A stretch of 10,757 nucleotides of DNA from a virus (Duplodnaviria > Heunggongvirae > Uroviricota > Caudoviricetes), in the IMG/VR virus record IMGVR_UViG_2693429677_000014, positions 1-10,757 of that record; one strand, written 5' to 3'. The notes below the pieces were generated by a model. It was not told where the DNA came from, ran no database searches, and saw nothing but the letters and a program-made list of their open reading frames with translations. The position numbers were made by a program, and so were the translations under genes. Below are positions 1,823-10,757 of this stretch, piece after piece (position 1 is the first letter of the stretch; the number at the start of each line of letters is the position of its first letter).

Positions 1823-3712
1823 TTAATCGTGTTTTGGCCATACTTTCAATGCAATTTCCCCCAACTTTTTACCCCGCTCCAGGATTTCATCCTCATCCCA
1901 TTTATCCTTAACTATAAGTGGAATGTTCAGTCGTAGATTGGTGTGGACGATGAGAGCATCACGTTTTTTCAGAAATACAGCATTCTGAACAGAACGGTTT
2001 ACGCTAAGGTTAAGCAAAGTTAGATTTCCCAACGTAGTTATCGCTTGTTGCCGTTTCCTTACCAGTAGCTGTTCTGGGGTAAGATCGGTTCCAGACAGAA
2101 CAATTTGGTTCAATACCGTAGCATCTGAATTTGTCACCATATGACCATTTTCGAGAGGCCAACAGGAATACCAACTTTGAGGCATAAGATGATCGATATC
2201 GAGGTTAGAAAGATTTGGAACATCAGGCTTCTCTGTCTTCACTTGGCGACAAAGTTCTCTTTCAAGTTCCGTTAACATTGAGCGCATTTTCGGTGCGTCG
2301 AGCCTGCCAGGATAAAGTGGAGCATTGATGCAAGCGTTGAGAAATTCTGAGTCCCCAGGCCAACGTGAGGCTTCGCCATTTAAGCTATTGAGGATATTAC
2401 GTAACTCAACACTGGAAATTTCTGTTTTAGACAAGTGCCGCAATACATTCATAAATACATTGTTGTAATTCTTTGGCGTCAGGCCACATACGGCTCTTCG
2501 TACTACGTAGGAGACAAGATCATTATACATGGCTGCTTTCTCATCATCGGCGATGTTAGCTATCGAAATGAACAAAGCAAGCGGATAAAGTGTCGTCACA
2601 TCATAGGCTGCGATGCGATGTCCAAAGTGTGAGATGGGGGTTGTGCCAAAACCACCAACCAATTCTTTATATTGTGATGCATATTGTTTGAGGCGCTTTA
2701 CTTGCAGATCTGCTCGTTGTGAAGGCAAGTCCTTACTTACATAATCACGATACTCATTGTAAAGACGAGACAGATCGATTTCACGTTGCCTTTCTGATTG
2801 CAATGTTGCATGCACTAGCCACTCCATGCGTGGTTTATTAATACGACCACGACGTTGTCTTTCTGACCAGTACGTATCTTCAAAGATCTTCCACTCATTC
2901 TCATATAATTCAACAGCATTAATATTTTCATGTTCAGCGCACATAAAAATATAATTGCGAATAAGATCTGTGGCATGAAGTTCCGCACCTCTGCCATTTA
3001 ATGTTTCAAAAATTATTTGAGCGTCATCTTCAGCCTCGAGAAATATGCTTACTAGTTTCAGATCCGTCAAGACAGCCTCAATTAATGCTACAGCATTTTC
3101 TCGTGGTGAGTGATTTTCTATTTTAATCCACTTTATAAAGGCTTCAGTAAAAAAACATAATGCTTCTAGTGATGGCGGGTGATTAAAATGCTTACGCAAC
3201 GTACCATGCTGCGTGAAACTATCAGAGAATACATTCCGGATATCGTCAATATTTTCAACATTAAAACTTTGAATAAAATGAGTTTGATCCCGAAAAGTTG
3301 GCCACAGTTTGAAGCGCTCTACTTCTTTATTTCGCATTGTGTCTTCGTTTGAGTTTTTCAGGCAAGACGAAATGAGAGGCTCTAAGTTGGAAAGATCTGT
3401 TGCACGTAATGCTAATCGGATGGATGCCAGAACATATTGAAGAGTGGTCAATCGTTGCTGACCATCAATAATATGTATGGAATCTACACCGAATAATCCT
3501 TTTTTTGGTTGAGGTTCCAGTACAACTGCACCAAGGAAATGGGGAGTTGGTTTTGTACCCGAGAGCCGGGATTGTGCTTTCTCTAGGATATCCTCCAGTA
3601 GAGCTGACCATTGGTTTCGCTGAGTCCATACATAGGCACGTTGATAGAATGGAACACAGTATTGTCGGCGGTCTTGAAAAAGTTGTTGGACAGTTAGCGT
3701 CTCGGATTTCAT
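1823..3712 (-). CDS. GmrSD-family putative type IV (modification-dependent) restriction endonuclease: N-terminal DUF262 (ParB-like, DGQQR motif) + C-terminal DUF1524 (HNH/His-Me finger)
   Basis: ORF track 1823..3772 (649 aa). Motifs YCVPFYQRAYVW and IIDGQQRLTTL (DUF262); C-terminal DIDHLMPQSW ... LGNLTLLNLSVNRS (DUF1524). Start chosen at ATG 3712 (MKSETLTV..., AGG 7 nt upstream); the upstream ATG at 3772 has no Shine-Dalgarno and overlaps a TAAAAT -10-like hexamer. Confidence 0.8.
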   Translation of the reverse strand: MKSETLTVQQLFQDRRQYCVPFYQRAYVWTQRNQWSALLEDILEKAQSRLSGTKPTPHFLGAVVLEPQPKKGLFGVDSIHIIDGQQRLTTLQYVLASIRLALRATDLSNLEPLISSCLKNSNEDTMRNKEVERFKLWPTFRDQTHFIQSFNVENIDDIRNVFSDSFTQHGTLRKHFNHPPSLEALCFFTEAFIKWIKIENHSPRENAVALIEAVLTDLKLVSIFLEAEDDAQIIFETLNGRGAELHATDLIRNYIFMCAEHENINAVELYENEWKIFEDTYWSERQRRGRINKPRMEWLVHATLQSERQREIDLSRLYNEYRDYVSKDLPSQRADLQVKRLKQYASQYKELVGGFGTTPISHFGHRIAAYDVTTLYPLALFISIANIADDEKAAMYNDLVSYVVRRAVCGLTPKNYNNVFMNVLRHLSKTEISSVELRNILNSLNGEASRWPGDSEFLNACINAPLYPGRLDAPKMRSMLTELERELCRQVKTEKPDVPNLSNLDIDHLMPQSWYSCWPLENGHMVTNSDATVLNQIVLSGTDLTPEQLLVRKRQQAITTLGNLTLLNLSVNRSVQNAVFLKKRDALIVHTNLRLNIPLIVKDKWDEDEILERGKKLGEIALKVWPKHD

Positions 3713-4169
3713 GGTATACCTGTAAGCGACATTGTACAAAAGTGAGGAGTTAATCTGATTTAGAACAATCATTTTATGTTGCTATGATACAACGTATTTG
3801 TTACCGGTTAAGTAAAAAACGCGTCTGAACGCTGACGTTTTAGGGCTTTACTAGTTATTCTTTCTTATCTCTTCATCATCCCATCGGCATCCTGTCGAGG
3901 TTGTTGACTTGTTGTTATTTATTTTGTTTAGGCGCTGTTTAATTATTATTGATGGGACTGGTGGTGAGAGGTGATTGAAACCGCAGACAGGTCGTATGCA
4001 AGACGTGCTGCGGTTGGCTGATGCACTTTTGATAGTGCAAGTATTGAATGATTGCCAGTCACAGCGGATTGTACTTAGGTAATATGACGGTTCAAGGCGT
4101 TTAAACTGAAACCATCCACATATCAGTCTCTTCAAACATTTCCTAAATCGTTCGGCTTATCTGTTCTTT

Positions 4170-4642: not shown

Positions 4643-5308
4643 TTAATTGTCTAAGCTGGTATAATATGAATAAAGGCTTTTTCCCATTATTTTCTCTAAA
4701 TCCTTTTTGTTTCTAAAGAAAATGTTTGAGATATGCTGATGATAATACTTTATAATGATTCTCATCAGCGCCGATACTACCTCATGAAGTTTTTTCACCA
4801 TTTTATGCTGTGTTGAATTACAATCTCCCTCCATAAGTGATATAAATGTTGATGTAACATTTAGGTTCGCTTGGGGGGAGGAGTGAACATAATAACAGGC
4901 GTTGATATAGACATTATGTAAATAAGACCAGCCTTCATCGACTTGTTGGGCTTTTAAGAAGTCAAAGTCTCTACGACGTACAGTTTGGTCAAAATCCCCA
5001 CCATTGTAGTTCTTATTGAGGCTTATTCTGGCCACATGCTCCACCATTGAGCGGAAGTTCAGTTGGAGATACCGTTCTCTTTTTTTTATAATGGCAATTA
5101 AGGAGTTTAAGGTATCATATATAAAACCTTTTATATAAGAAGAGTGATTTAGATTAGGATTGTGACTTAAAATTGTATTACAAAGACTTATTTGCCTAAA
5201 TATTGATACTGATTTGTTTATTTCATCAGTGGTTCTGAGGTGCTTTTGCACCTCCGCTCTAAAATAATTTACATCTCTTCCAATGTTGAAGGGATCCTGC
5301 GTGAGCAT
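4643..5308 (-). CDS. Hypothetical protein (221 aa), third gene of the AT-rich operon; no recognisable domain
   Basis: ORF track 4643..5308; start ATG overlaps the upstream stop as TAATG (translational coupling); AT-rich codon usage consistent with its neighbours. Confidence 0.6.
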   Translation of the reverse strand: MLTQDPFNIGRDVNYFRAEVQKHLRTTDEINKSVSIFRQISLCNTILSHNPNLNHSSYIKGFIYDTLNSLIAIIKKRERYLQLNFRSMVEHVARISLNKNYNGGDFDQTVRRRDFDFLKAQQVDEGWSYLHNVYINACYYVHSSPQANLNVTSTFISLMEGDCNSTQHKMVKKLHEVVSALMRIIIKYYHQHISNIFFRNKKDLEKIMGKSLYSYYTSLDN

Positions 5309-5706
5309 TATTCTTCTTCCTTTTTATTTGCATTAATCCAAATATTTAAATTCCTTATAGCATGCTTGCTTTTAGATGTGGATTTTTGGCTTGTTTTATT
5401 TGCATCATTAAAAATAATGTCTAATGTGTTAATGTTGTTTAAGAAATGCGTATAAGCCATCTTTATGTCATTCTCACTTAATTCATTAATATGTTTGCAA
5501 ATTTTAGCGCACATCAAAGTTCTTGACCGTACAGCATAATTCAAAAAAGATATTTTGAAGGTTTTGTTAATAAATTTACTAACATCAAAATTTGATCTAA
5601 AAACCTCTTTTGAAAGAATCAACATAATTACCAAGCCTAAGAAGTTTTCTTTGGTCATGGGCATATTGTTAGCTTTATTGAGCGCTTTAATTAATTGTTT
5701 ATTCAT
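5308..5706 (-). CDS. Hypothetical protein (132 aa), Lys/Asn-rich; second gene of the AT-rich operon
   Basis: ORF track 5308..5706; overlaps the ParA-like stop by 8 nt and the downstream start by 1 nt; no motif recognised. Confidence 0.55.
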   Translation of the reverse strand: MNKQLIKALNKANNMPMTKENFLGLVIMLILSKEVFRSNFDVSKFINKTFKISFLNYAVRSRTLMCAKICKHINELSENDIKMAYTHFLNNINTLDIIFNDANKTSQKSTSKSKHAIRNLNIWINANKKEEE

Positions 5707-6544
5707 TTGTGTTACCTTCCAAGTGAGCCACTCTGTTAATAAATTCGTTACAGATCTTTTCTATATCTTGGCGTGACTTTGAATAACAAGAAGGAATATT
5801 TCCTTGATAACCTACCATTAAATCACGCACGTAGGTTAATTGATTTTCAAAGAAATAAAAATTTGTAAATTGAGTATGGTTTTCGAATTGTTCTTTAATT
5901 TCCCTTGTTTTATTGGTCATTTCAGCATCAGTGTTTGTATAAATGTAACCGACTTGCTTGATTTCTTTCTCATGATGTGTGCGCATATTTCTTATAACGC
6001 TATTTAAACTGCTTGCTCCAAGCACCGAGTAGTGATCAATTTTAACCGGAGTAAGATAATAATCAGAAGCAAGGAGTGCGGTATCTGTAAATAATGAGAT
6101 TGTTGGGGGGCTATCGATAAAGATATAGTCGTAACTTTCTTTTAAGTCATTTTCGGTGATGAATTTACGCAACATTTTTATTCTAATACCCTCTTGGTTA
6201 GTATCAAAGATAATGTTTATATCACCTAAGATAATATCAAGATTGTCTGAAACTTTAGTAATGACCTGTTCTGGTGTCACTTTCTTTTCATCTTCCATTA
6301 ATGAATTTGGAAGCTCAAAAATCTTTCGAATGGTTTGATTATTAGGGCGAAGGGCAGTCATATATTCTTCTACTCGATCATAATGCCCCATTAAGGACTG
6401 AGTGGCATTAAATTGAGGATCAATATCGATAACTAGAACCTTGCGCCCCATATGGTTGGCTAAAAACTCAGCAATCCCAACGCATAAAGTTGTTTTACCA
6501 ACCCCACCTTTCATATTGATAAAACTAATTACTGGTGCAGTCAT
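5699..6544 (-). CDS. ParA/MinD/Soj-family P-loop ATPase (deviant Walker A)
   Basis: ORF track 5699..6544 (281 aa): MTAPVISFINMKGGVGKTTLCVGIAEFLANHMGRKVLVIDIDPQFNATQSL (KGGVGKTT deviant Walker A, DxDPQ) and YDYIFIDSPP (Walker B); AAGGA Shine-Dalgarno about 10 nt upstream of the ATG. Confidence 0.85.
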   Translation of the reverse strand: MTAPVISFINMKGGVGKTTLCVGIAEFLANHMGRKVLVIDIDPQFNATQSLMGHYDRVEEYMTALRPNNQTIRKIFELPNSLMEDEKKVTPEQVITKVSDNLDIILGDINIIFDTNQEGIRIKMLRKFITENDLKESYDYIFIDSPPTISLFTDTALLASDYYLTPVKIDHYSVLGASSLNSVIRNMRTHHEKEIKQVGYIYTNTDAEMTNKTREIKEQFENHTQFTNFYFFENQLTYVRDLMVGYQGNIPSCYSKSRQDIEKICNEFINRVAHLEGNTNE

Positions 6545-7291: not shown

Positions 7292-7337
7292 ATTCGTAAT
7301 GCGAAGGTCGTAGGTTCGACTCCTATTATCGGCACCA
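7292..7337 (+). pseudogene. tRNA-Thr(CGU) 3' fragment (anticodon loop to CCA), thrW-like; integrase attachment-site duplicate, not a complete tRNA
   Basis: ATTCGTAATGCGAAGGTCGTAGGTTCGACTCCTATTATCGGCACCA: CGT anticodon, T-arm GTAGG-TTCGACT-CCTAT, acceptor 3' strand plus discriminator A plus CCA; no D-arm or 5' acceptor strand upstream. Ends 14 nt from the integrase stop. Confidence 0.7.
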
Positions 7338-7351
7338 TTTAAATCAATAAA

Positions 7352-8512
7352 TTACCTCACATTTAAGTAAACCACGTTCACCTCTTGTGCCGTATTTGTG
7401 CCATTGCGACTTATAATCGCATCGATTTTGCTCGCGTGCTCGGTGAGATGCCCGGCTGAAAGGTGGGCGTATCTTTGAACCATTTCGAGAGTTTCCCATC
7501 CTCCCATCTCTTTAAGTGCAAGAAGAGAGACACCGGACTGAACCAGCCAGCTTGCCCAGGTATGCCTCAGGTCATGGAAGCGGAAGTTGCTAATGCCCGC
7601 CCGCTTTAACGCTCCCTTCCATGCCTTGTTGCTGTCGGTTCTCATCTTCCTTACCGCTGCTGTTTTTGTTCCGTCGCTTCGGTAGGCAGGTCTGGTGTGG
7701 ACAAATACCCATCTCTTATGGAGCCCCTGCTGTTTTCTTAATATCTGGCATGCGGTTTCGTTAAGAGGAACTCCGATCGCATTGCCAGCTTTTGTTTCAT
7801 CAGGGTGCATCCATGCCATTTTCTTATCCAGATCGACCTGTGACCACTCAAGGTCTGTAACGTTGGAACGGCGAAGGCCTGTCGTGATTGCAAACATGAC
7901 CACAGGGAAGAAATGAGGAGCAATTTCTGCAAACAGGTGCTTCGATTCCTCCTCTGTAAGCCATCTGATTCGTCCATTCTTAACGCGTGGTGTTGATATT
8001 TTGGGCGCCCTGTCAAGCCATCCCCATTCAACAGCTATATTGAGAATAGCGCGAAGTATTGCCAGATGCCGCGTCTTCGTTCCTTTGCTTGCCAGCTTTG
8101 GTTTATACTCCGGCACTGGCTTGCCAAGCCGCAAACACCTGTCCCGGCTCATCTCCCAGTTCAGGCGATGGCGGCGGTTTTCCATCCCGTCTACCGCCTC
8201 CATTATTTTTTCTGTTGTTATGTTAGAGAGAATGGTTTCTCTGAAGTGCAACATCCAGAACGATATAATGCTCTTGTCATCATCAATGGACTTCTTATCC
8301 GATTTCTCACGCAGCCACCGTATGCAGGCTTCCTTGAATAGCTTTTTCGGTGATTCCCCGAGATTTTTTACTCTCCACGCTTCTGCTTTCAGACGATCGT
8401 GAAATTCTTGCGCTTGCCTTTTGTCCGATATTTTAAGTGAGCGTCTAACTCTTGATCCATCTGGCGCGACGAAATCGCAGTGCCACGTGCCACCGCGTAG
8501 TTTGATTGACAT
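7352..8512 (-). CDS. int: Tyrosine site-specific integrase, lambdoid IntF/IntD (HK620/Sf6/SfV) family
   Basis: ORF track 7352..8512 (386 aa); AGGAGG 8 nt upstream of the ATG; catalytic boxes RFHDLRHTWASW and VQRYAHL; overall resemblance to remembered IntD/IntF-type integrases; 3' end abuts the tRNA-Thr fragment. Confidence 0.9.
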   Translation of the reverse strand: MSIKLRGGTWHCDFVAPDGSRVRRSLKISDKRQAQEFHDRLKAEAWRVKNLGESPKKLFKEACIRWLREKSDKKSIDDDKSIISFWMLHFRETILSNITTEKIMEAVDGMENRRHRLNWEMSRDRCLRLGKPVPEYKPKLASKGTKTRHLAILRAILNIAVEWGWLDRAPKISTPRVKNGRIRWLTEEESKHLFAEIAPHFFPVVMFAITTGLRRSNVTDLEWSQVDLDKKMAWMHPDETKAGNAIGVPLNETACQILRKQQGLHKRWVFVHTRPAYRSDGTKTAAVRKMRTDSNKAWKGALKRAGISNFRFHDLRHTWASWLVQSGVSLLALKEMGGWETLEMVQRYAHLSAGHLTEHASKIDAIISRNGTNTAQEVNVVYLNVR

Positions 8513-8687
8513 GCTTTAACCTCCTGCACATCAACCGCATTCACCGCGCTATTGTGTCTTACAGACTTAAGCGCCGCAATGCAGTCTGACTTGCAAATGC
8601 GATATGGGCTTTTAGGTTTATCTGGATTTATCTTTGCGGCCTGAAGTCGTCCACTTCGTATCCACTGCGTGATAGTGTCTTTGTCTA
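8389..8687 (-). pseudogene. Excisionase-family (AlpA/Xis-like) HTH DNA-binding protein, 5' end cut by IS911; reading frame overlaps the integrase start
   Basis: Minus-strand translation from the IS911 boundary: ...IDKDTITQWIRSGRLQAAKINPDKPKSPYRICKSDCIAALKS..., fitting the excisionase-family winged-helix pattern; no start codon in the flank, first helix missing; frame runs through the integrase RBS and ATG to a stop at 8389. Confidence 0.5.
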
Positions 8688-8759
8688 TGTAGTGGCACAC
8701 TGAATTTGGCCACCTGAACAGAGGTGATATGCTCACCTCAGAACAACACAGGTGCTCCA

Positions 8760-9930
<1,171 letters not shown>

Positions 9931-9968
9931 CCACTACAAATTGGCGACGTTAGCGTTACAGATATTAA

Positions 9969-10757
<789 letters not shown>

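Follow-up and report, generated by a model that had tools for sequence, protein, structure and literature searches.

A lambdoid excisionase gene of the P22/HK446 type truncated by an IS911-like element beside an intact integrase gene at thrW

Described excisionase-integrase modules and the locus at thrW

In phage lambda, the excisionase gene xis is found immediately upstream of the integrase gene int, with which it overlaps, in the early-left operon of this lambdoid phage. The lambda Xis protein is a 72-aa winged-helix protein belonging to another family than the excisionases discussed here, and the overlap between lambda xis and int measures only ~20 nt. In phage P22, the gene order is xis-int-attP with a thrW core, and the GenBank feature coordinates of both the RefSeq entry NC_002371 and the 1986 entry X04052 (Leong et al. 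1986) place the frame of a 116-aa Xis in a 124-nt overlap with that of a 387-aa Int. PMC7498355 cites Mattis et al. (2008) for the purification and characterisation of P22 Xis, a recombination directionality factor, and among the proteins compared here it is for P22 Xis only that the activity is established. The thrW-integrating phage HK446, together with its mEpX2/mEp213/SfX-type relatives, offers the nearest comparison. Its annotated xis (1801-2148, product AFH20654.1) and int (2025-3185) also overlap by 124 nt.

The stretch of DNA analysed here (the window, 10,757 nt) carries such a module between a fragment of the tRNA gene thrW and an IS911-like insertion sequence (Table 1). As in lambda and P22, the 3' end of xis runs into int, which follows directly downstream. 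The module agrees with HK446 in its thrW-derived attachment sequence and in how far the two genes overlap, and the integrases are identical in 378 of 386 residues. The locus differs from HK446 in that the xis gene is devoid of its first 17 codons, its GTG start, and the preceding GGAG, and has an IS911-like element in their place; from P22 it differs in that the gene is a diverged orthologue and truncated. It is very likely that 8389-8687 represents the 3' 85% of the xis gene of a thrW-integrated lambdoid prophage of the HK446/P22 type, i.e., a pseudogene beheaded by an IS911-like element, with a native int overlap and an exchanged flank. The comparisons described below show directly that and exactly where xis is truncated, that the ancestral event was a simple insertion, that the overlap is native, and that the right flank is foreign.

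Table 1. Coordinates of the features discussed, in window positions
Feature	Position	Strand	Size and composition	Basis
thrW (tRNA-Thr) 3' fragment, ptwF-like	7292..7337	+	46 nt	Comparison with intact thrW in the IS-free locus L001 and with HK446 attP
Tyrosine integrase gene, P22/HK446 type, intact	7352..8512	minus	386 codons, 386 aa	PF00589, comparison with HK446 Int
Dual-frame coding region	8389..8512	minus	124 nt; Xis C-terminal tail (41 codons) and Int N-terminus	
Chimeric ORF	8389..8760	minus	123 codons; TTG start at 8760-8758	ORF listing
Native xis remnant	8389..8687	minus	Codons 18-115 of a 115-codon gene; stop 8389-8391	HK446 Xis alignment, PHROG 2907
Spurious 5' part of the chimeric ORF	8688..8760	minus	24 IS-derived codons, without Shine-Dalgarno sequence	
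IS911-like IS3-family element	8688..9938	+	1251 bp; ends TGTAGTGG.../...CCACTACA	
orfA of the element	8760-9062	+	100 aa	
A6G frameshift motif	9011-9017		Within the IS	
Decayed P4-type integrase pseudogene, 3' part	9939..10667	+	Frameshift and internal stop	

The P22 attP/attB core ATGCGAAGGTCGTAGGTTCGACT, whose sequence is quoted in PMC8022706, is located at 7299-7321 inside the thrW fragment. No second copy of this core was found within the window, and ARAGORN detected no intact tRNA in it. The fragment forms the attL side of what is left of the prophage and doubles as the right end of the element upstream. The integrase gene is preceded by an AGGAGG Shine-Dalgarno sequence 7 nt upstream of its ATG and encodes a full-length protein with a catalytic domain (PF00589, 118.7 bits); the tRNA-derived core follows 15 nt beyond its stop codon. 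We class this protein with the integrases of the P22/HK446/SfX type, for which 'IntD-like', after the IntF/IntD integrases named in the first-pass annotation, is a fair description. In the assembly collection, 725 blocks list a protein identical to this Int. Since int is transcribed towards the thrW fragment, as it is in HK446 and P22, the body of the prophage was formerly situated to the right of xis.

The thrW site also carries a trace of an older occupant. At ~9820-9890 of the corresponding locus of E. coli 23CRST010, ~70 nt of a diverged integrase 3' end align with window positions 7338-7406, and prophage-free genomes retain an integrase 3' remnant directly after the ptwF thrW fragment and before the yagP/paoD region. 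It is this ~70-nt remnant that the older occupant left behind.

Left of 7292, the window contains a type IV restriction enzyme gene, a ParA-like cluster, and tail-fibre/invertase remnants, which belong to a different element that in other E. coli ends at the ptwF-like fragment. The 649-aa DUF262 protein encoded there shows an end-to-end match to the PADLOC model of type IV methyl-directed restriction enzymes (1437 bits). Its gene and the neighbouring three-gene cluster are located at 1823-3772 and 4643-6544, both on the minus strand; the cluster encodes a ParA-like ATPase and two proteins without matches, and might be another defence or partition module. The tail-fibre/DNA-invertase remnant region includes a perfect 164-nt direct repeat (230-393 and 1369-1532), and an N-terminal fragment of an invertase is found at 1563-1727.

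The truncated excisionase gene and its overlap with int

The motif TITQWIRSGRL...YRICKSDCIAAL is found within the minus-strand ORF 8389..8760, which the first-pass annotation had interpreted as an excisionase gene whose 5' end consists of IS911 terminal sequence and which has thereby lost its start codon and its first helix. This interpretation was borne out by the comparisons. The IS end TGTAGTGGCACACTGAATTTGGCCACC starts at 8688, so that codons 1-24 of the ORF are IS-derived and codons 25-123 (8687 down to 8389) are native. Residues 25-123 match the PHROG 2907 profile 'excisionase' with E = 1.3e-42 and are identical to residues 17-115 of the HK446 excisionase at 95 of 99 positions, which points to a homology far in excess of chance. 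Residues 1-24, when aligned, are unrelated to the excisionase family.

A megablast search with positions 8300-8687 against 5,426 complete E. coli genomes returned the region in 126 records, in most of which a 'helix-turn-helix domain-containing protein' is annotated upstream of the integrase. One of the loci compared (L001) is free of the IS and has the order proA-thrW-int-HTH gene. Here, xis comprises 115 codons with a GTG start seven bases after GGAG; its product, which begins with VEEEIFTREEAASYLKVDKGTITQW..., is 100% identical to the annotated HK446 excisionase and aligns by tblastn with P22 Xis (116 aa) over residues 1-112 with 41.6% identity (E = 4e-21). When the window is compared with this allele, the two sequences break between ...CTTTGTCTA and CCTTCAG.... 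The peptide VEEEIFTREEAASYLKV, which intact alleles encode after the GTG start, is missing from the window ORF, and the remnant is thus left without the GTG, the GGAG ribosome-binding site, and the N-terminal 17 residues. As the intact gene has 115 codons and a different N-terminus, the window ORF is not complete as it stands.

The same loss is apparent from the profiles. Of the 117 positions of PHROG 2907, the intact allele covers 2-117 and the window ORF 18-117, positions 1-17 being lost. The Pfam profile HTH_17 (cut-off 27 bits) scores 35.3 bits with the intact allele versus 17.6 bits with the window ORF, and TIGR01764 'excise' (cut-off 28.8 bits) scores 31.8 bits with the intact allele and does not match the window ORF. 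The ORF is best regarded as a P22-type excisionase by descent that is a truncated rather than a complete member of its family. A search of solved structures gave weak matches to BldC and Pukovnik Xis (E = 0.14-1.5), which are useful for the fold class only. Based on these alignments and the profile coordinates, the 17 lost residues would correspond to the N-terminal strand and the first helix of a MerR-like winged helix-turn-helix.

No in-frame start codon that would spare the DNA-binding domain was found in the native part, where the only GTG/ATG codons are at codons 73, 78, 90, and 101, none of them preceded by a Shine-Dalgarno sequence. Nor does any Shine-Dalgarno-like sequence stand before the candidate starts of the IS-derived part (TTG at codon 1, GTG at codons 9 and 21).

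The window xis is placed directly upstream of a P22-type int and ends inside it. With the int start at 8512 and the stop of the xis frame at 8389-8391, the overlap amounts to 124 nt, close to the 'about 120' nt originally given, which had been ascribed to either an unusual overlap or a frameshift that removed the native stop codon. Neither explanation holds. The stop position and the 124-nt overlap are identical in IS-free E. coli alleles, and all 12 related phages compared, from nine host genera (Escherichia, Salmonella, Shigella, Citrobacter, Hafnia, Serratia, Edwardsiella, Klebsiella, and Hamiltonella), show an overlap of either 124 nt (n=7) or 145 nt (n=5) at a constant frame offset of 2. 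The Xis proteins of intact family members are 110-123 aa long; their tails can be aligned to the very end and share the motif L..LL.QRTKGK.... In the 12 phages, the Int N-terminus MS(I/L)..R..W is conserved from residue 1, and because this conservation begins at Met1 the int start is not in doubt. Where two phages have the same Int residue, the fraction of wholly identical codons is 0.56 in int codons 1-41 versus 0.39-0.42 elsewhere in int. The phage pairs compared are not independent of each other, and this higher synonymous conservation is a rough test for dual coding that is supportive only. The overlap, which HK446 and P22 share at the same 124 nt and which has one of two lengths (124 or 145 nt) in each of the 12 phages, is thus a native and long-known layout in which no stop codon has been lost. 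In this layout, the xis frame extends 124 nt into int, with the Xis tail and the Int N-terminus encoded by shared DNA in two frames.

Within 8300-8687, the window differs from the IS-free allele L001 at six nucleotides, four of which are located at 8403-8436 in the overlap. The changes in this cluster alter both proteins (Int E27K, T28I, and L37F; Xis L to H and H to Y), and they could stem from a recombination patch or from relaxed constraint after the death of xis.

The xis ORF overlapping int is present but unannotated in several of the deposited phage genomes compared, namely yong1, 2G7b, 75/02 Stx, GF-2, and Klebsiella phi13.1. The annotators of phage L added xis by hand (PMC8022706).

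The IS911-like element and its foreign right flank

The element that interrupts xis is called IS911-like because its right end is identical to the published right inverted repeat (IRR) of IS911 (PMC2909936) in 33 of 36 positions, its OrfA has 100 aa, and it contains an A6G motif. Its terminal sequences in the window are TGTAGTGGCACACTGAATTTGGCCACC on the left and GGTGGCCAGTTTTTGTTGACCACTACA on the right. Both ends carry TGTAGTGG as terminal bases, whereas IS911 has TGAAGTGG. Further differences from IS911 are the length of 1251 bp, a broken orfB, and flanks that do not form a target duplication, since CTA is found left of the IS and AAT right of it. Its orfA and the A6G motif are in place. Its orfB, judged against a 1249-bp IS copy with an intact 389-aa OrfAB, has been broken at 9326-9334 by small indels and now reads as two frames, 9089-9412 and 9409-9930. 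The transposase of the window copy is probably defective. The same indels create the inverted repeat GGCTCATGAAAGAACT...AGTTCTTTCATGAGCC. An identical copy of the 1251-bp variant is present in the xis gene of two E. coli loci (L011 and L014).

How the element came to xis can be seen in the relatives. The xis/IS junction occurs at 100% identity in seven complete E. coli genomes. In five loci (L007, L008, L011, L012, and L014), the IS occupies the same nucleotide position as in the window and the order is xis'-CTA-IS-CTA-CCTTCAGATACG...CAC, in which the part beyond the IS is the missing 5' end of xis, followed by the upstream prophage genes. These loci are the product of a plain IS transposition with a 3-bp CTA target duplication, which fits the IS3 family. 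In some of the seven genomes (L002 and L013), a deletion has since removed the far flank as far as a PACE-transporter/LysR cargo region.

Two further loci (GCA_043762885.1 and GCA_002247965.2, at ~5600-5830) share with the window both its truncated xis allele and the nucleotide of the junction (window position 8688). Joined to it is another IS3-family member, which shows ~64% identity to the element of the window across 1.25 kb and has the same terminal TGTAGTGGCACA. The presence of two different IS at one exact xis junction hints that a resident IS was replaced by one targeted to the IS end, as opposed to independent hits.

To the right of the IS, the window differs from all of these loci. 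Positions 9939-10667 are 100% identical to the 3' part of the decayed P4-type integrase beside ssrA that belongs to the EspC island of EPEC E2348/69. This segment is not the missing 5' xis end, and a simple IS insertion in the window itself was rejected, given this foreign flank and the absence of a target duplication. In strain 2015C-4136CT1, the ssrA-side integrase bears an IS911 copy whose junction coincides exactly with the right one of the window. The window thus joins the left junction of the thrW IS copy to the right junction of the ssrA IS copy. From 10666 onward, the sequence is that bordering an IS21-like element next to ssrA in E2348/69, and the end of the window, at 10757, falls inside repeat-associated DNA.

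A 2.3-kb query across both junctions found them at a single site in none of the 5,426 complete E. coli genomes. The window as a whole is covered to no more than 58% by any complete E. coli genome, and the exact left junction gave no match among genomes taken one per species. Four genomes hold both parental IS copies, in every case on the same strand and in direct orientation. An inversion between the two IS911 copies is therefore an unlikely origin of the join, and a simple exchange between them would delete or duplicate megabases. The remaining options are an IS-homology-mediated translocation, a duplication junction, a genome that is laid out differently, and an assembly chimera.

The present state of the locus very probably arose as follows. 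An IS911-like element transposed into codon 17/18 of xis, so that the remainder of the gene lost its promoter, its ribosome-binding site, its GTG start, and the codons for the first 17 residues. What lay beyond the IS was subsequently replaced by part of the ssrA/EspC-island integrase, either by recombination that involved another IS911 copy or through an error of assembly. The 123-codon ORF is an accident, the IS end happening to be open in the xis frame, and the window retains only a stub consisting of the thrW fragment, the intact int, and the truncated xis.

Alternative readings and consequences for the prophage

The alternatives to a dead xis remnant start from the features that make the ORF look alive. 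With 123 open codons, its length is close to the 110-123 aa of intact family members, and one could propose that it is complete and functional, the IS-derived N-terminus having replaced the native one. This is extremely improbable and effectively refuted: residues 1-24 bear no relation to the family, the TTG and GTG codons that would have to serve as starts are without a Shine-Dalgarno sequence, HTH_17 falls under its cut-off and TIGR01764 is lost, and the relatives that carry the 5' xis piece across the IS reveal a disruption. The proposal that a frameshift removed the native xis stop and that the int overlap is a lesion draws on the length of the overlap alone; it is refuted by the conserved overlap, i.e., the same stop position and 124 nt in IS-free alleles, HK446, and P22, the 124 or 145 nt in 12 of 12 related phages, and the conserved tail motif, and deserves practically no credence. 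Very unlikely, if slightly less so, is that a C-terminal Xis fragment, with its tail encoded within int, is still made and modulates the intact integrase. In its favour, int is intact, the identical Int recurs in the assembly collection, the tail is conserved in the family, and the in-frame codons 73, 78, 90, and 101 could provide starts. These codons, however, have no Shine-Dalgarno sequence, a scan of 8350-9100 for sigma-70-like promoters on both strands (a consensus scan, which is an insensitive method) found none, the wide occurrence of Int can be clonal, and two of the four Xis differences of the window allele fall in the tail. A related idea with a slim chance of being correct is that the stub is not inert: an intact, widespread int with a disabled xis could persist as an integration-only module that might help incoming thrW-targeting phages or give them a landing pad, or a residual Xis tail peptide encoded inside int could tune Int. 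The locus is, in our reading, an ordinary IS-disrupted prophage pseudogene of an already known kind.

A weightier alternative concerns the right flank. The join of xis', IS911, and the ssrA-island integrase could be an assembly chimera across the repeated IS that corresponds to no real chromosomal arrangement, in which case the IS would in truth adjoin either the 5' piece of xis or the end-point of a deletion. This is unlikely on balance but has to be taken seriously, considering that the complete genomes lack the double junction, that a simple reciprocal exchange between the same-strand parental copies would have the drastic outcome noted above, and that the window, like contigs assembled from short reads, stops in IS-associated sequence. 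On the other hand, short-read assemblers seldom produce a contig that crosses a repeat of 1.25 kb, the 1251-bp variant of the window IS is also found in the xis of L011 and L014, and real routes to such a join exist, e.g., a duplication junction or the excision of a circle between IS copies followed by its re-integration through homology of the IS. A chimeric assembly would leave the xis truncation untouched.

For the prophage, we infer that no functional Xis is made from the remnant and that int is now poorly transcribed because it has been cut off from the early-left operon. IS read-through transcripts could in principle allow some translation, with the TTG/GTG codons or the internal ATG (codon 101) serving as starts. 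The stub should be incapable of excision. The loss of Xis would block excision in a P22-type system, since P22 Xis is a characterised directionality factor according to the work cited in PMC7498355. The first-pass annotation had concluded that the excision control is probably inactive, which would lock the island in place. Its core can be kept, as xis is truncated and such a loss would have this effect. Its scope has to be revised: the prophage body to the right of xis is already gone, the element itself and not just its control is largely lost, and what was treated as one island comprises a different element left of the thrW fragment and the decayed integrase of another island past the IS. 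The loss of xis is one lesion among several, and nothing excisable remains attached.

In practical terms, the proper annotation of this locus is a xis pseudogene at 8389-8687 that is disrupted by an IS911-like element and adjoins an intact P22-type int; the annotation of a 123-aa protein is wrong, the overlap is no frameshift, and beyond the correct annotation the importance of the locus is small. In P22-type modules, xis natively stops 124 or 145 nt inside int. Gene callers often omit xis owing to this overlap, and readers can misjudge the overlap as damage. The locus furthermore provides a small worked example of how IS elements dismantle a prophage stepwise, by an insertion that is followed by loss or exchange of the flank.
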